The notes under the pieces: generated by a model | What the model saw: only the letters and a program-made list of their open reading frames with translations | Told to the model about the DNA's origin: nothing | Databases searched by the model: none | Assembly (NCBI RefSeq): GCF_009931435.1 | Contig: NZ_CP043414.1 | DNA from: Escherichia coli | Lineage (GTDB): Bacteria > Pseudomonadota > Gammaproteobacteria > Enterobacterales > Enterobacteriaceae | Length of the DNA stretch: 64,000 bases | Strand: one strand, 5' to 3' | Program-made: the position numbers and the translations under genes | Shown: positions 34,545 to 41,711 of the stretch, in pieces | Numbering within the stretch: position 1 is the first letter of the stretch | Layout: each line of letters opens with the position of its first letter

Positions 34545-35945
34545 ATGGACCAGAAGCTGTTAACGGATTTCCGCTCAGAACTACTCGATTCACGTTTTGG
34601 CGCAAAGGCCATTTCTACTATCGCGGAGTCAAAACGATTTCCGCTGCACGAAATGCGCGATGATGTCGCATTCCAGATTATCAATGATGAATTATATCTT
34701 GATGGCAACGCTCGTCAGAACCTGGCCACTTTCTGCCAGACCTGGGACGACGAAAACGTCCATAAATTGATGGATTTGTCGATCAACAAAAACTGGATCG
34801 ACAAAGAAGAATATCCGCAATCTGCAGCTATCGACCTGCGTTGCGTAAACATGGTTGCTGACCTGTGGCATGCGCCTGCGCCGAAAAATGGTCAGGCCGT
34901 TGGCACCAACACCATTGGCTCTTCCGAGGCCTGTATGCTCGGCGGGATGGCGATGAAATGGCGTTGGCGCAAGCGTATGGAAGCCGCAGGCAAGCCAACG
35001 GATAAACCTAATCTGGTGTGCGGCCCGGTACAAATCTGCTGGCATAAATTTGCCCGTTACTGGGATGTGGAGCTGCGTGAAATCCCTATGCGCCCCGGTC
35101 AGTTGTTTATGGATCCGAAACGCATGATTGAAGCCTGCGACGAAAACACCATCGGCGTGGTGCCGACTTTCGGCGTGACCTACACCGGTAACTATGAATT
35201 CCCGCAACCGCTGCATGATGCACTGGATAAATTCCAGGCCGACACCGGTATCGACATCGACATGCACATCGACGCCGCCAGCGGTGGCTTCCTGGCACCG
35301 TTCGTCGCCCCGGATATCGTCTGGGACTTCCGCCTGCCGCGTGTGAAATCGATCAGTGCTTCAGGCCATAAATTCGGTCTGGCTCCGCTGGGCTGCGGCT
35401 GGGTTATCTGGCGTGATGAAGAAGCGCTGCCGCAGGAACTGGTGTTCAACGTTGACTATCTCGGTGGTCAGATTGGGACTTTCGCCATCAACTTCTCCCG
35501 CCCGGCGGGTCAGGTGATTGCACAGTATTATGAATTCCTGCGCCTCGGTCGTGAAGGCTATACCAAAGTACAGAACGCTTCCTACCAGGTTGCCGCTTAT
35601 CTGGCGGATGAAATCGCCAAACTGGGGCCGTATGAGTTCATCTGTACCGGTCGCCCGGACGAAGGCATCCCGGCGGTTTGCTTCAAACTGAAAGATGGTG
35701 AAGACCCGGGATACACCCTCTACGACCTCTCTGAACGTCTGCGCCTGCGCGGCTGGCAGGTTCCGGCCTTCACTCTCGGCGGTGAAGCCACTGACATCGT
35801 GGTGATGCGCATTATGTGCCGTCGTGGCTTCGAAATGGACTTTGCTGAACTGTTACTGGAAGACTACAAAGCCTCCCTGAAATACCTCAGCGATCACCCG
35901 AAACTGCAGGGTATAGCCCAGCAGAACAGCTTTAAACACACCTGA
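34545..35945 (+). CDS. gadA: Glutamate decarboxylase GadA (466 aa)
   Basis: Starts [19 protein letters not shown]...; called gadA and not gadB because gadX follows. Confidence 0.95.
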
Positions 35946-35964
35946 TAACATAATTTTGTAAAAA

Positions 35965-36010
35965 CCGAATGCCCCGACCTTAAAAAACAGGTGGGGCATT
36001 CGGTTACTTA
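35965..36010 (+). terminator. Stem-loop downstream of gadA
   Basis: ccgaatgcccc...ggggcattcgg palindrome; weak U-tail. Confidence 0.4.
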
Positions 36011-36313
36011 TTCATGCAATAATATATTGGCTGTTTATTCATCGTGTTGATAAGATATATGTTATATGAATGTTATTAAGGGTGGCGAGACCGTTTAATA
36101 TCACAATAAGGGATTATTTGCTTACTAATAATTTCCCTGCGTTTTTAACGCCTTTTTTTGTATTATAAATCCAGTTATCCAGCCCGACTATCATCACACA
36201 TCATCATCCTGTTTTCCCGCTTCGTTTAAATTTATTTATCAATCAATTTGACTTAAGAGGGCGGCGTGCTACATTAATAAACAGTAATATGTTTATGTAA
36301 TATTAAGCCGACT

Positions 36314-37138
36314 ATGCAATCACTACATGGTAATTGTCTAATTGCGTACGCAAGACATAAATATATTCTCACCATGGTTAATGGTGAATATCGCTATTTT
36401 AATGGCGGTGAACTGGTTTTTGCGGATGCAAGTCAAATTCAAGTGGATAAGTGTGTCGAGAATTTTGTATTAGTTTCAAGGGACACGCTTTCATTATTTC
36501 TCCCGATGCTCAAGGAGGAGGCATTAAATCTTCATGCACATAAAAAAGTTCCTTCGTTACTCGTTCATCACTGTACCAGAGATATTCCTGTTTTTCAGGA
36601 GGTTGCGCAACTATCGCAGAATAAGAATCTGCGCTATGCAGAAATGCTCCGTAAAAGAGCATTAATCTTTGCGTTGTTATCTGTTTTCCTGGAGGACGAG
36701 CAGTTTATACCGCTGCTTCTGAACGTTTTGCAACCGAACATGCGAACACGAGTTTGTACGGTCATCAATAATAATATCGCCCATGAGTGGACATTAGCCC
36801 AAATCGCCAGCGAGCTGTTGATGAGTTCAAGCCTGTTAAAGAAAAAATTGCGCGAAGAAGGTACGTCATATTCACAGTTGCTTACTGAGTGTAGAATGCA
36901 ACGTGCTTTACAACTTATTGTTATACATGGGTTTTCAATTAAAAGAGTCGCAGTGTCCTGTGGTTATCACAGCGTGTCGTATTTCATTTACGTTTTTCGA
37001 AATTATTATGGGATGACGCCCACAGAGTATCAGGAGCGATCGGCACAAGAATTGCCGAACCGTGACTCGGTGGCAAGTATTGTTGCACAAGGGAATTTTT
37101 ACGGCACTGACCGTTCTGCGGAAGGAATAAGATTATAG
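36314..37138 (+). CDS. gadX: AraC-family acid resistance regulator GadX
   Basis: 274-aa ORF matching GadX. Confidence 0.95.
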   Translation: MQSLHGNCLIAYARHKYILTMVNGEYRYFNGGELVFADASQIQVDKCVENFVLVSRDTLSLFLPMLKEEALNLHAHKKVPSLLVHHCTRDIPVFQEVAQLSQNKNLRYAEMLRKRALIFALLSVFLEDEQFIPLLLNVLQPNMRTRVCTVINNNIAHEWTLAQIASELLMSSSLLKKKLREEGTSYSQLLTECRMQRALQLIVIHGFSIKRVAVSCGYHSVSYFIYVFRNYYGMTPTEYQERSAQELPNRDSVASIVAQGNFYGTDRSAEGIRL

Positions 37139-37154
37139 AGTTTTACTCAGACAT

Positions 37155-37260
37155 AAAAAAAACCCGGCATAGGGGACCGGGAAGAGGATAGTCTGCCGTC
37201 TCCAGACTAATAAACCGTTATAACACTCCCTGTTGGCACGGGAAACTTTGTGCTCTCAGT
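37155..37260 (-). ncRNA. gadY: GadY small RNA, antisense to the gadX 3' UTR
   Basis: Reverse complement begins ACTGAGAGCACAAAGTTTCCCGTGCCAACAGGG... and ends in CCCGGTCCCCTATGCCGGGTTTTTTTT, matching GadY as recalled. Confidence 0.8.
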
Positions 37261-37506
37261 AAGTTAAATATAACTTTTACTGGAAATAAGATCAGCCATT
37301 TTTTTATAAACATAAGCTATACGCTGTGTGAAAATATATTGGTGTTGCATTTACTTATTATCAATTAACTGTTATGCAAAACTACTTTGTGGATAAATTT
37401 TGGTCCTACCAAATATGGCAGTTTTTGCACTAAGAAACAGTCTGGCGTCATTTCATTAGTATACTGAAATTGAAATAATCGCAGTAATGAAATATAAGGG
37501 ATAGTC

Positions 37507-38235
37507 ATGACTCATGTCTGCTCGGTGATCCTCGTTCGTCGTTCATTGGATATTCATCATGAACAGCAAAAAATATCGTTGCACAACGAAAGTATTCTAC
37601 TGCTGGATAAAAATTTGGCAGATGATTTTGCGTTTTGTTCACCGGATACGCGACGGCTGGATATCGATGAGCTGACAATTTGCCATTACTTACAAAATAT
37701 TCGTCAGCTACCACGCAATTTAGGGTTACATAGCAAAGACCGTTTGTTAATTAACCAGTCCCCCCCCATGCCTCTGGTGACGGCGATTTTTGATAGTTTC
37801 AATGAATCCGGGGTAAATTCGCCGATAATGAGCAAGATGCTTTACCTTTCCTGTTTATCAATGTTTTCTCATAAGAAAGAACTTATCCCCTTACTTTTCA
37901 ATAGTATCAGTACTGTTTCAGGAAAAGTTGAACGCCTTATTAGCTTTGATATCGCTAAACGTTGGTATCTACGCGATATCGCGGAAAGAATGTATACCAG
38001 CGAGAGTCTCATCAAAAAAAAGTTGCAGGATGAAAATACCTGTTTCAGTAAAATATTACTCGCCTCCAGGATGTCGATGGCCAGACGATTACTCGAGTTA
38101 CGTCAAATTCCTCTACATACTATTGCAGAAAAATGTGGGTATAGCAGTACGTCGTACTTTATAAACACATTTCGACAATATTATGGTGTAACGCCACATC
38201 AGTTTGCGCAACATTCTCCGGGTACCTTCTCCTGA
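37507..38235 (+). CDS. gadW: AraC-family acid resistance regulator GadW
   Basis: 242-aa ORF matching GadW. Confidence 0.95.
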   Translation: MTHVCSVILVRRSLDIHHEQQKISLHNESILLLDKNLADDFAFCSPDTRRLDIDELTICHYLQNIRQLPRNLGLHSKDRLLINQSPPMPLVTAIFDSFNESGVNSPIMSKMLYLSCLSMFSHKKELIPLLFNSISTVSGKVERLISFDIAKRWYLRDIAERMYTSESLIKKKLQDENTCFSKILLASRMSMARRLLELRQIPLHTIAEKCGYSSTSYFINTFRQYYGVTPHQFAQHSPGTFS

Positions 38236-38597
38236 CCTATTTCGTATTTGAATATTGGTCAGGATCTCGCACCTGCTTCATGTGAAACTCTTTCCTGATG
38301 ATCTCTTCCGGGCTACCGGCAAGATCTCTTTCGTAGTTAGCCAGGCGGTATAGGTATTTTCAGGAGGAAAAGACTCGGCATGTTTGGGATTATTAAGCTG
38401 ACAATTCATACGATTACGGGAATGTGGGTCAGTATTGTGCTGTTCAAATTGATGACGAATGGCTGGAGTGGCTTCTACTTTCAGTGCTGTGTACTAAGCC
38501 TGGTATTCCTGACGGTCAGCTGGTTGTTGAGTGGTGAATGGTTAGCAGGAAAGAGTAAGGCTGAACCCTCACGTTCAACCTTACTCTCATTTACACG

Positions 38598-41500
38598 TTA
38601 CGCTTTTTTAAAGCGGGCAAAGAGATGTTCCACTACAACGAAAAAGACTGGAACGAAGTAAATGGCCAGCACTGTTGCGGCAAACATCCCGCCCATCACG
38701 CCGGTACCTACCGCGTTTTGCGCGCCGGAACCGGCACCATGACTGATTACCAGCGGCAGCACGCCGAGAATAAAGGCCAGAGAGGTCATCAGGATTGGGC
38801 GTAAACGCATTCGCGCCGCTTCGATGATCGCCTCTATCGGCGTTTTCCCTTCTTTCTGCATCATCTCAACGGCAAATTCGACGATCAGGATGGCGTTCTT
38901 GGCGGAAAGCCCGATGGTAGTCAGCAAACCAACCTGGAAGTAGACGTCATTACTTAAGCCGCGCAGATCGGTGGCCAGTAATGCGCCAACGACGCCTAAC
39001 GGTACAACCAACATCACCGAGAACGGAATTGACCAGCTCTCATAAAGTGCGGCAAGGGCGAGGAACACCACGACCAGTGAAATGGCATACAGCGCGGGAG
39101 CCTGGTTTGAGGATAACGCTTCCTGATAAGACAGTCCGGTCCATGAGTAGCCGACGCCTGCCGGAAGTTTAGCGACCAGGTCTGCCATAAATTTCATGGC
39201 GTCACCGGTACTTTTCCCGGCCGCCGCTTCTCCTAAAATCTCCATTGACGGGATACCGTTGTAGCGTTCCAGTCGCGGCGAACCATAGGTCCATTCGGTA
39301 GACGAATAGGCAGAAAGCGGTGCCATCGTGCCAGAGGCGTTGCGTACATACCACTGGTTGATGTTATCCGGCAACATACGGAACGGCGTGCCTGCCTGGA
39401 CATACACTTTTTTCACCCGTCCCTGGTTGAGGAAGTCGTTCACGTAGCTGCTGCCGAAGGCGGTGGAAATTGTCTGGTTGATATCGGACAGCGCCACGCC
39501 CATTGCCTCGGCTTTCGCGGCATTGACGTTAACTTTGAACATTGGCGTATCTTCCAGGCCGTTCGGGCGTACCCCGGTAACCTGGTTCGGCGATTGCGCA
39601 GCCAGTGATAACAGCTCGTTTCGCGCCTGGGTCAGTTTTTCGTGCCCCAGGTTACCGTTGTCCAGCAGTTCCATATCAAAACCTGATGCGGTACCCAGTT
39701 CAGCCACCGCGGGTAAGTTGAACGGGAAGACGACGGCTTTATTGATACTGCTTAGCGCAATCATTGCCCGCTGAATGATCGCGGTAACTGAGTTTTCCTC
39801 GCCGACACGTTCAGACCACGGCTTGAGGCTGATAAACGCCAGACCGTTGTTTTGCCCCTGGCCACTGAAGCCAAAGCCGCCAACGGTAAACACCGACTGA
39901 ACATTATCTTTCTCTTTTGTCAGATAATAATCAGTCACCTGTTGCAGCACTTTCGTGGTGTTAACCATGGTTGCACCGGAAGGTAACTGCGCGGTGGTCA
40001 TAAATACCCCCTGATCCTCTTCTGGTAAGAAAGAGGTCGGCGTACGCAGGAACAGCACCGCCATCCCGGCGCAAATCAGCAGGTAGACCACCATGTAGCG
40101 ACCGGTACAACGCAACAGTGAGCGGGTGCTATCGGTATAGTGCTGAGTTGATTTTTCAAACAGCGTGTTGAAGCGTGCGAACAGGGCGTTAGGTTTGTGA
40201 CCGCCTTCCGGCGCGGCTTTCAGAATGGTGGCGCACAGGGCAGGGGTCAGGCTCATTGCGACAAATACTGAAAGCAGCATCGAGGAGATCAGCGTGATGG
40301 AGAACTGTCGGTAGATCTCCCCGGTTGCACCGCTCATAAAGGCCATCGGCATAAACACTGCGGAAAGCACAACGGCAATCCCGACCAGCGCACGTTGGAT
40401 CTGCCCCATGGATTTATGCGTTGCTTCCTTCGGCGGTAGCTTATCTTCCGCAATGACACGCTCGACGTTCTCCACCACCACGATGGCGTCATCCACCAAC
40501 AACCCTATCGCCAGCACCATCCCGAACATGGTGAGGGTGTTGATGGTGAAACCGACCGCCGACAAGATCGCAAACGTCCCGAGAATAACCACCGGTACGG
40601 CAATCGTCGGGATGATTGTGGCTCGGAAATTCTGCAAAAACAGATACATGACCAGGAAGACGAGGATGATAGCCTCAACCAGCGTTTTGAAAACTTCCTG
40701 AATAGAAATTTTGATAAACGGTGTGGTGTCGTAAGGATAAACCGTCTTCAGGCTTGCGGGGAAATAAGCCGATAAACGGTTCAGCTCCTCTTTCACCGCT
40801 CGCGAGGTATCCAGGGCGTTTGCTCCGGTAGCCAGTTTGATGGCGATACCGGCAGCAGGTTTGCCGTTATAGCGCGCCACGGTGGAATAATCTTCCGCCC
40901 CAAGTTCGACGCGGGCGACATCACGCAGCAGCACTTGCGAGCCATCTTGCTGAACTTTCAACAGGATTTTGCCAAATTCTTCCGGCGTTTGCAGACGCGT
41001 CTGCACAATGATCGAGGCGTTCAGTTGCTGGTCTGCCGCCTGTGGCATGCCACCCAGTTGACCACCAGAAATCTGGTTGTTTTGCACCTTAATCTGGGAA
41101 ATAACATCGGAAGGTACCAGGTTGTATTTATTGAGTTTTTGCGGGTCCAGCCAGATACGCATGGCATACTCGGAACCAAAGAGTTGTACGCTACCAACGC
41201 CCGCGGTACGGCTTAGCGGGTCTTTGATATTAGACGCTACATAGTCCGCGATATCGTACTGGTTGAGACTGCCGTTATCAGAAATGAACGCCGCTACCAT
41301 CAGGATATTACTGCTCGACTTATCGACGCTAATACCCTGCTGCTGCACCGCTTCAGGTAATGAAGGCATAGCGAGTTGCAGTTTATTTTGCACCTGAACC
41401 TGCGCGATATCAGGCGATGTCCCCGTCTCAAAGGTCAGAGTGATGGAGGCATTACCCGCCGCATCGCTGGTTGAAGACATGTACATCAGGCCATCAAGCC

Positions 41501-41711
41501 CATTCATATTTTGCTCAATCACCTGAGTGACCGAGTCTTCTACCGTTTGCGCATCGGCACCCGGATAGGTTGCGCTGACGGTAATGGTTGGTGGCGCAAT
41601 CTGCGGATATTGCGCAACCGGTAAGTTCATGATCGCCAGACCACCTGCAAGCATCATAATAATGGCAAGTACCCAGGCAAAAACCGGGCGATCAATAAAA
41701 TAGTTAGCCAT
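38598..41711 (-). CDS. mdtF: RND multidrug efflux transporter MdtF
   Basis: 1037-aa ORF matching MdtF (AcrB family). Confidence 0.95.

Follow-up and report, generated by a model that had tools for sequence, protein, structure and literature searches.

Between gadW and mdtF, the open reading frame (ORF) proves to be a genuine and conserved gene of Escherichia coli, and it is already known. It is rcpA, also described as sORF15, and very probably encodes an inner-membrane protein with two transmembrane (TM) helices that links the induction of acid resistance to the shut-off of csgD. In the window, a 64,000-nucleotide stretch of E. coli DNA (contig NZ_CP043414.1), the ATG-started ORF of 93 codons, its quoted protein sequence and the AGGAGG motif were all present as described in the initial annotation, the A of the start codon lying 13 nt past the last G of the motif (Table 1).

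The gene rcpA ("repressor of curli production", MS7163_03831) was described by Nhu et al. (2018, mBio; PMC6106082) as a CDS of 282 bp and 93 aa downstream of gadW. The ORF was identified with rcpA because the published primers map inside it and because it has the same size and the same position downstream of gadW: the three rcpA primers for qRT-PCR and checking (AATTGATGACGAATGGCTG, CAGCCTTACTCTTTCCTGC and ACCCACATTCCCGTAATC) gave one match each, all within 38412–38563. At the level of the locus no difference was found between the published RcpA and the window ORF, and the predicted topology is the same. The protein published as sORF15 (Schumacher et al. 2023, mSystems; PMC10746267), placed by its authors in the gadW 3' UTR, is identical in sequence to the K-12 ortholog (NC_000913.3:3663464-3663745, minus strand), and only one residue (R65C) separates that ortholog from the window protein. 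PMC10746267 presents sORF15 as new and makes no mention of rcpA, curli or csgD. The protein allele of the window was the commonest one, present in 25 of the 40 metagenome copies. The ORF had been noted as unannotated, and this was the case for RefSeq K-12, for the closest strain in RefSeq and for each of 40 RefSeq genomes drawn evenly along the match list.

Table 1. Features of the gadW–mdtF region, with positions in the window.
Feature	Position	Strand	Basis
gadW, upstream gene, same transcription unit as rcpA	37507..38235	+	ORF list, annotation
Fast-evolving non-coding spacer (gadW 3' UTR), gadW stop to rcpA Shine-Dalgarno	38236..38361	+	divergence, indels
Shine-Dalgarno AGGAGG of rcpA, 12-nt spacer to ATG	38362..38367	+	direct sequence reading
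rcpA / sORF15 CDS, 93 aa plus stop	38380..38661	+	ORF list, primer mapping, K-12 ortholog
Predicted TM helix 1, aa 7-26	38398..38457	+	hydropathy peak; TMHMM boundaries (PMC6106082); AF2 helix 2-27
Turn motif T26-N-G-W-S-G-F-Y-F34 between helices	38455..38481	+	invariant columns, 9-lineage protein alignment
Predicted TM helix 2, aa 31-50	38470..38529	+	hydropathy; TMHMM boundaries (PMC6106082); AF2 helix 29-58
16-bp stem-loop, candidate mdtF terminator, within rcpA codons 58-70	38551..38588	-	folding, terminator scan
rcpA 3' end / mdtF antisense overlap, 64 nt	38598..38661	.	ORF coordinates
mdtF, convergent with rcpA	38598..41711	-	ORF list

The spacing between the Shine-Dalgarno and the start codon is long and suboptimal, yet inside the working range. 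Over the 19 nt from the Shine-Dalgarno to the ATG most lineages had 0–1 differences, the spacer upstream of this segment being 24–29% diverged, and AGGAGG followed by ATGTT was found in 40/40 complete metagenome copies of rcpA. The promoter scan of the plus strand at 38000–38900 gave no sigma-70-like promoter, RpoS-type promoters being outside the scan. The Rfam scan of 35500–39500 (E ≤ 1) gave no RNA family over the ORF; the only matches in this region were GadY (37150–37263) and a sub-threshold ES205. A homolog of K-12 sORF14 sits in the spacer downstream of gadW, and its frame is not conserved. ORFs equally long as rcpA are found also antisense within mdtF (103 aa at 39463–39774 and 97 aa at 40408–40701), and the length of the rcpA ORF is by itself not beyond chance. 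It rises above chance through the way it is conserved and through experiments already in print.

Conservation of the frame had been proposed as a check on the ORF, and the comparison showed purifying selection across the genus. The frame was open over 93 codons and without indels in nine divergent Escherichia lineages, with variable sites distributed 20:9:34 over the three codon positions. The dN/dS ratios were 0.05–0.21 over codons 1–56, which include the two-helix part, and 0.07–0.29 over codons 1–72. When substitutions were placed at random (5,000 simulations for each of four lineage pairs), non-synonymous changes as few as those observed were obtained in 0–1.9% of the simulations. The five other frames each had 3–7 stops, and in four of them the ratios were clearly higher (0.4–10); in the antisense frame sharing the wobble positions, which has three stops, they ranged from as low as in the ORF frame to 0.5. 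The adjacent non-coding spacer served as the control for divergence: between K-12 and the cryptic-clade lineages it was 24–29% diverged and included indels, while rcpA codons 1–56 were 12–18% diverged with no indels. Polymorphism of rcpA within E. coli consisted of nine synonymous and three non-synonymous changes, and the gene was intact in 37 of the 40 metagenome contigs. The two-helix core of RcpA is thus under purifying selection.

Some apparently broken copies were rejected as evidence against the frame. Frameshifted or truncated variants of 76, 54 and 141 aa in the large protein collection were not accepted as natural pseudogenes; three assemblies are error-rich, since also the neighbouring gadW and mdtF are fragmented in them. 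The 1-nt deletion allele of L011–L013 was not matched exactly in any of 5,403 complete genomes, and one metagenome contig with a seemingly disrupted rcpA (L055) was really an assembly chimera.

The initial annotation had counted the overlap with the end of mdtF and the hairpin inside the ORF against the ORF. Both features are present, the overlap comprising 64 nt and the hairpin being stable on the mdtF-sense strand (−27.3 kcal/mol, z = −4.5 vs shuffles). As an argument against the gene they did not hold, but the constraint itself is real: the conservation of the last ~36 codons is explained by the mdtF hairpin and the antisense mdtF. The overlap covers the last 21 mdtF codons and the stop, the third codon positions of both frames coincide in it, and its only variable sites are at ORF nt 255, 258, 261 and 270, all of them third positions. 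The tail (codons 57–93) had no independent sign of protein-level selection: where its residues vary they fall in the hairpin loop, mdtF fixes the last 21 of its codons, and the ortholog of Escherichia fergusonii is without it. The stop codon of rcpA lies 73 nt past the hairpin, and transcripts ending at the hairpin would be without a stop codon.

Across the nine lineages, 97.9% of the cells in the hairpin stem were paired, and the loop was variable. One compensatory change, from U-A to C-G, was found in the stem; this covariation was not significant, as 103 of 500 shuffles reached one compensatory pair. The hairpin is therefore conserved, but not proven by covariation. The terminator scan gave a terminator-like match at the hairpin on the minus strand, just downstream of the mdtF stop. 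The stem is stable and conserved, but the U-tract is poor (UCUUUCCUGC); judged from sequence, the hairpin is a candidate terminator of mdtF.

In E. fergusonii a syntenic ortholog of 54 aa was found, holding the two helices only, with the tail absent. It was 49% identical to RcpA (53% at the nucleotide level) and retained the GWSGF and CC residues. The differences were distributed 22:9:38 over the codon positions, with a pN of 0.30 and a saturated pS. The profile search against 1.84 billion representatives gave only variants from Escherichia, the ortholog of E. fergusonii and, in addition, one weak match, a protein of 1524 aa (P0068; E 2.7e-4) aligned to the basic tail only. Relatives of RcpA were found solely under Escherichia or Shigella labels, and the family appears, by these searches, to be restricted to Escherichia. 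Homologs with >80% identity have been reported from Vibrio, Klebsiella, Salmonella and Enterococcus (PMC10746267); these were not reproduced here as independent lineages, and their likelier source is entries with wrong labels or contamination, or partial matching to the region antisense to the 3' ends of RND-pump genes. No match to a curated family (Pfam, NCBIfam) or to a PDB sequence was found at E ≤ 10.

The two hydrophobic segments claimed initially were found also in the hydropathy profile, with 19-residue Kyte-Doolittle peaks around residue 13 (1.68) and residue 41 (1.95). TMHMM predicted the two TM helices and a cytoplasmic C-terminus (PMC6106082), and the C-terminal tail is basic, with 11 K/R and 2 D/E. 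AF2 produced a further helix at residues 65–87 in addition to the two in Table 1, all at low confidence (mean pLDDT 63.5, pTM 0.28). By prediction RcpA is a small inner-membrane protein with two hydrophobic helices and positive-inside charge. The idea of a small membrane protein gained support from the conserved frame and the published translation.

Ribosome density had been suggested as the other check, and acid-induced Ribo-seq occupancy as well as a FLAG-tagged product have been published. At pH 4.4 vs 7.6, sORF15 had a Ribo-seq log2FC of 4.21 (padj 1e-38) and an RNA log2FC of 4.03, and a FLAG construct that kept 15 native nt in front of the start codon gave a positive western blot (PMC10746267). 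Raised expression of rcpA by Tn5 read-through, by the chromosomal PcL promoter or by the plasmid pRcpA abolished in each case CsgA and Congo-red binding, and csgD and csgA transcripts were down by log2 −6.6 to −13.9; the repression of curli holds also in UTI89, and the PcL-rcpA strain loses in competition in the mouse bladder (PMC6106082). The published Tn5 insertions at −23, −25 and −26 map just upstream of the rcpA Shine-Dalgarno. The cloned rcpA CDS includes the 64 nt antisense to mdtF.

In the mechanism that we propose, rcpA lies in the long gadW 3' UTR. Transcripts reading through from gadW would carry it, ribosomes would start at its own Shine-Dalgarno, and its level would for that reason increase at low pH along with the acid-resistance regulon of GadX/GadW. 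The protein would have two TM helices, with a periplasmic turn between them that is very short and invariant (NGWS), and a strongly basic tail in the cytoplasm, giving a predicted N-in/C-in topology in the inner membrane. As the level of RcpA rises, transcription of csgD and csgA would collapse and curli would no longer be made. The two-helix core may, as MgrB or SafA do, bind a larger signalling protein of the membrane that acts upstream of csgD, and this binding would link the induction of acid resistance to the shut-off of the biofilm matrix. The scheme supposes that there is such a partner, that the effect on curli comes from the protein and not from the RNA, and that native levels of RcpA would suffice for it. 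The tail of the E. coli type would be a recent overprinting: an ancestral gene of 54 codons, in the form seen in E. fergusonii, would have been read through across the mdtF terminator into antisense mdtF. That RcpA is in this way a physiological switch from GadX/GadW to curli, acting through a membrane signalling protein and carrying an overprinted tail, is put forward only tentatively.

Several other explanations were weighed. Possibly, although we would not favour it, the loss of curli is an artefact of overexpression in which a small hydrophobic protein, pushed into the membrane, sets off Cpx or Rcs envelope stress, either of which represses csgD, the native role of RcpA lying elsewhere in the acid fitness island. 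All phenotypes in the available text of PMC6106082 stem from raised expression, and a loss-of-function phenotype is reported neither there nor in that of PMC10746267, so the effect on curli could be an indirect result of envelope stress; the same screen recovered yrfF (igaA) and Rcs genes, and also activation of Rcs is curli-negative (PMC6106082). However, the Tn5 read-through raised rcpA only ~3.2-fold while csgD went down ~70-fold (PMC6106082), such a rise falls within the ~16-fold natural induction at pH 4.4 (PMC10746267), and a growth defect is mentioned in the available text of neither paper. A role in a neighbouring transporter, as proposed by the authors of sORF15 (PMC10746267), would make RcpA an accessory subunit or modulator of MdtEF-TolC, comparable to AcrZ with AcrB, or of the glutamate/GABA antiporter GadC. 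The gene adjoins mdtF convergently in every lineage including E. fergusonii, it is induced together with the Gad system (PMC10746267), and its product is a predicted membrane protein. Adjacency is, however, the sole evidence, with no similarity to known families in Pfam, NCBIfam or PDB, and this model alone does not explain the repression of csgD; we consider it unlikely.

It is quite improbable that the active product is an RNA, the gadW 3' UTR/rcpA transcript acting as an antisense or dual-function RNA, for example on the mdtF 3' end or on another mRNA, with translation being secondary. GadY, with its Rfam match upstream, gives a precedent at this very locus, as it acts on gadX-gadW by antisense pairing. 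Also the perfect antisense overlap with mdtF and the conserved hairpin would fit an RNA, and no start-codon or frameshift control for the cloned CDS was seen in the available text of PMC6106082. Against this, the third-position excess, the low dN/dS of the core and the amino-acid conservation with E. fergusonii are signatures of a protein, and the duplex of the rcpA region with the csgD 5' UTR (−78.8 kcal/mol) was no better than the shuffle mean of −82.3 kcal/mol, in a search crude enough for short seed pairing to escape. Hardly credible is a chance ORF whose conservation would reflect nothing beyond the gadW 3' UTR, the terminator of mdtF and the end of its coding region, even if ORFs of similar length are antisense to mdtF, one third of the frame lies on the hairpin and mdtF, and PGAP and RefSeq do not call it. 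Codons 1–56 are truly intergenic, with substitutions of coding type, no indels and a frame kept in E. fergusonii, and Ribo-seq and western blot have been published (PMC10746267); by the selection tests made here and the published translation this reading is refuted.

If RcpA is the physiological switch put forward tentatively above, outward-reading transposon or cassette insertions in gadW would give biofilm phenotypes through rcpA. Insertions in gadW were depleted from mature biofilm and the clean gadW deletion was without phenotype (PMC8743551), a discrepancy that read-through into rcpA would then explain. Taking the two published descriptions together, RcpA, with its ~16-fold induction at pH 4.4 alongside gadXW, may couple stomach-type acid stress to the switching off of curli, which are relevant to colonisation of the urinary tract. 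Because neither RefSeq K-12 nor the PGAP annotations of E. coli genomes include it, rcpA is repeatedly rediscovered, the Ribo-seq paper of 2023 treating it as new five years after its naming. The gene merits a reference annotation, and constructs disturbing gadW need to be checked for effects through rcpA. To both papers the present analysis adds a quantitative test of selection, in which selection is demonstrable for the two-helix core alone, as well as the core-only ortholog of E. fergusonii and a corrected taxonomic spread.

Among known systems, AcrZ (49 aa), the partner of AcrB, resembles RcpA in being a small membrane protein near a pump of the AcrB family, MdtF being a paralog of AcrB (Pfam ACR_tran). 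AcrZ, however, spans the membrane with one TM helix, and its gene lies apart from acrAB; RcpA is without similarity to AcrZ, and its putative tie to MdtF is one of position. Another parallel is offered by MgrB (47 aa) and SafA (65 aa), inner-membrane regulators of the sensor kinase PhoQ: like RcpA, they are small and hydrophobic, are induced within a stress regulon and alter a transcriptional programme. The analogy to MgrB was drawn also by Nhu et al. (PMC6106082). MgrB and SafA have one TM helix each, whereas two are predicted for RcpA, and there is no sequence similarity. The gene safA is co-transcribed with ydeO, encoding an AraC-family regulator of acid resistance, and the safA-ydeO arrangement parallels that of gadW-rcpA.

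The window includes the part of the E. coli acid fitness island where gadX–gadW adjoins mdtF. ORF search recovered the reading frame between gadW and mdtF with the position, sequence and 93 codons given in the initial annotation, and the AGGAGG motif described there was present upstream. The two hydrophobic segments were likewise seen (Kyte–Doolittle 19-residue means 1.68 and 1.95), as were the 64-nt run of the ORF into the mdtF 3' end on the opposite strand and its passage through a hairpin. The stop codon is located 73 nt past the hairpin, and no U-tract follows the hairpin on the + strand. The length of the ORF is unremarkable, since chance ORFs of 97 and 103 codons are also present antisense within mdtF.

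Features of the gadX–mdtF region and of the E. fergusonii ortholog (window positions unless a locus is named)
Feature	Position	Strand	Basis or remark
gadX	36314-37138	+	
GadY sRNA, full-length, between gadX and gadW as expected there	37150-37263	-	Rfam RF00122, 150 bits
gadW	37507-38235	+	ORF and annotation
sORF14 homolog	38282-38353	+	second published gadW 3' UTR candidate (13 aa in K-12)
AGGAGG (Shine–Dalgarno, SD)	38362-38367	+	12 nt before rcpA ATG
rcpA/sORF15, ATG start, 93 codons	38380-38661	+	ORF search
Stem-loop inside rcpA	38551-38588	mdtF-sense	16 consecutive pairs, -27.3 kcal/mol, z = -4.5
mdtF	38598-41711	-	ORF and annotation
RcpA ortholog, two helices only, 54 codons	L061:6001-6165		E. 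fergusonii ATCC 35469, CU928158.2

The reading as a possible small membrane protein was supported: the ORF is a real gene, but one already described. A full-text literature search traced it to Nhu et al. 2018, where MS7163_03831 received the name rcpA; the CDS has 282 bp, encodes 93 aa and lies downstream of gadW (PMC6106082). According to that report, curli-negative colonies arose from three mini-Tn5 insertions, at -23, -25 and -26 relative to the ATG, and the phenotype was reproduced by a chromosomal PcL promoter and by plasmid pRcpA. Raised rcpA lowered csgD and csgA transcripts by log2 6.6-13.9, about 3-fold more rcpA transcript being enough to shut them off; the effect extended to UTI89, and in the mouse bladder the PcL-rcpA strain lost in competition (PMC6106082). 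The published rcpA primers each have one match in the window, at 38447-38465, 38545-38563 and 38412-38429.

The same gene was found independently as sORF15 by Ribo-seq inspection of the gadW 3' UTR (Schumacher et al. 2023, PMC10746267), which supplies the ribosome density named in the initial annotation as a check. The sORF15 coordinates (NC_000913.3:3663464-3663745, minus strand) and protein sequence match the K-12 ortholog of the window ORF, whose product is one residue different from the window protein. At pH 4.4 versus 7.6, sORF15 was reported with a Ribo-seq log2FC of 4.21 (padj 1e-38) and an RNA log2FC of 4.03, with translation efficiency unchanged; GadW (Ribo-seq log2FC 3.03) was induced together with sORF15, itself induced ~16-fold, under severe acid stress. 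A C-terminal 3xFLAG fusion with the native 15 nt before the start codon was western-positive (PMC10746267). The words rcpA, curli, csgD and Nhu are absent from the text of PMC10746267, and the full-text literature search gave only one other paper naming RcpA as a curli repressor. The gene is still missing from RefSeq K-12 and PGAP genomes, and GenBank submitters label its product 'hypothetical protein', while the exact window protein is recorded from at least 1,000 contigs. The present analysis identifies rcpA with sORF15, tests selection formally, separates a selected core from an overprinted tail, and adds the short E. fergusonii ortholog.

A 465-nt region was found in 5,414 of the 5,426 complete E. 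coli genomes, with at least 80% query coverage in 5,407. Nine lineages were compared: the window, K-12, four species representatives from a GTDB genome scan with GadW (L003-L006; GadW identity from 95% down to 78%) and three recovered via protein matches (L007, L009, L010). The start codon is kept in all nine, and in eight the 93 codons run without indels to a common stop codon. The exception is Escherichia sp. E2593 (L009:2501-2791), where one additional T in a T6 run within the mdtF overlap (window 38605-38610) alters the last ~16 codons to give 96 aa. The resulting T7 alters the MdtF C-terminus as well (1043 aa); it could be genuine variation or a sequencing error in the homopolymer.

Selection was tested on codons 1-56, the stretch of rcpA in true intergenic DNA. 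Pairwise Nei–Gojobori dN/dS was 0.05-0.21, and the variable sites were distributed 20:9:34 among the codon positions. When changes were placed at random, keeping the observed numbers of transitions and transversions, non-synonymous changes as few as those observed occurred in 0-1.9% of 5,000 simulations per pair (four lineage pairs). These three results together argue for coding selection, and frame conservation among relatives, the other check named initially, extended across the nine lineages. The other five frames contain 3-7 stop codons; four have clearly higher ratios (0.4-10), and the wobble-sharing antisense frame, with three stops, ranges from values as low as those of the ORF frame to 0.5, as expected. 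In cryptic-clade lineages compared with K-12, the non-coding spacer from the gadW stop to the SD, used as an internal control, is 24-29% diverged with indels, whereas codons 1-56 are 12-18% diverged with no indels; the SD-to-ATG segment is nearly invariant. In evolutionary rate the core is close to the gadW coding sequence, unlike the spacer. Within E. coli, 34 metagenome alleles segregate at 9 synonymous and 3 non-synonymous sites, and 37 of the 40 metagenome contigs spanning the whole region have the intact 93-aa ORF, the others having one in-frame 5-codon deletion, one nonsense codon and one frameshift. Purifying selection acts on the two-helix core across the whole of Escherichia. Large disruptions are rare in complete genomes; SW070912, among the very few with an interrupted region, carries an IS3-family element near codon 41 (L062:2766-4196, NZ_CM129860.1).

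The last third of the ORF has a different character. The hairpin overlies codons 58-70, and its stem is 97.9% paired across lineages, with a single compensatory change, U-A to C-G, synonymous on either side. Hairpin variation falls mostly in the loop, which coincides with the positions where the protein varies (P63, S64, R65). Codons 74-93 are antisense to the final mdtF codons, the third codon positions of both frames coincide, and variable sites there are third positions only. The hairpin and mdtF therefore account for the conservation of this part, and that conservation is no separate evidence that the tail is functional. Judged from these alignments, rcpA appears to consist of a core under selection and a tail that is overprinted.

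Searched with a profile HMM, 1.84 billion representative proteins yielded, besides Escherichia variants and fragments, one divergent relative, as well as a weak match to the basic tail only (P0068). The relative is encoded at the equivalent site in E. fergusonii ATCC 35469. This ortholog is located 19 nt past a gadW ortholog with 61% identity; mdtF follows in convergent orientation and is not overlapped, the ortholog ending at a different, GC-rich terminator hairpin (AAGGCCGG-TTTC-CCGGCCTT) followed by a T-run on the mdtF strand. It shares 49% protein and ~53% DNA identity with E. coli RcpA and retains the GWSGF...CC motif; differences by codon position are 22:9:38, with pN 0.30 and pS saturated. 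The conservation of the core alone indicates that the unit under selection is the two-helix core. Expression of this copy is uncertain, as no SD is visible upstream. Protein P0028, from a Logan assembly, is an RcpA variant with many T/A/S codons changed to I/M/V/F/L, as C-to-T changes along the whole sequence would give; bisulfite-converted or damaged DNA looks a likelier source of this assembly than a natural allele.

Homologs outside Escherichia/Shigella have been claimed in Achromobacter (PMC6106082) and, at >80% identity, in Vibrio, Klebsiella, Salmonella and Enterococcus (PMC10746267). Among 5.8 billion clustered proteins and 1.84 billion representatives, all relatives with a source name bear an Escherichia or Shigella label, and protein collections, Pfam, NCBIfam and PDB sequences gave no RcpA family relatives outside Escherichia. 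UniRef clusters of 100%-identical sequences bear the label 'Enterobacteriaceae' or 'Gammaproteobacteria'. Where nearly identical sequences are filed under another genus, contamination or mislabelling would be the simplest reason, and partial matches may come from conserved 3' ends of RND-pump genes translated in antisense.

Some observations concern the window strain and the adjoining sequence. The K-12 stop TAG of sORF14 is AAG in the window, giving 23 codons; elsewhere the frame has 6, 24 or >39 codons, and its GTG start is GTA in two lineages. Such variation counts against a conserved peptide. The window is collinear over 35236-41700 with the best-matching RefSeq strain (L001, NZ_AP027764.1), with mosaic identity: 0 differences in 38236-39485, an abrupt break at the gadW stop codon, and up to 19 differences in each of the 250-nt blocks flanking that segment on both sides. 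Identity of ≥99% over 38236-38700 is reached by only 2 of 5,415 records. The mosaic suggests recombination within the acid fitness island. The gadW–rcpA spacer (38236-38361) is 8.7% diverged from K-12 and rcpA codons 1-56 differ by 1.8%; a rare spacer allele is paired here with a common protein allele. In TraDIS-Xpress, gadW insertions were depleted in 48-h biofilm, whereas deleting gadW cleanly left biofilm unaffected (PMC8743551); outward transcription from the insertions into rcpA could explain the discrepancy.

TMHMM helices were reported at aa 7-26 and 31-50 (PMC6106082), and the AF2 model has three helices (pLDDT 63.5). The tail contains 11 K/R and 2 D/E. RcpA is thus predicted to sit in the inner membrane as a helical hairpin of N-in/C-in topology whose basic tail is cytoplasmic, the invariant 4-residue turn between the helices being placed in the periplasm by the same prediction.

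Other accounts of the gene and its curli effect differ in probability. An overexpression artefact through Cpx or Rcs is conceivable though doubtful, being weakened by the small fold-change in rcpA that suffices. It is unlikely that RcpA is an accessory to MdtEF or GadC, for which adjacency is the sole support. An action at the RNA level is more improbable still: the codon-level signal counts against it, and no special complementarity of the rcpA region to the csgD 5' UTR was found. That the ORF arose by chance is hardly credible.

By analogy with MgrB or SafA, RcpA would bind a larger signalling protein of the membrane that stands upstream of csgD. SafA is co-transcribed with the AraC-type acid regulator YdeO, and in this association it is a close parallel for RcpA.
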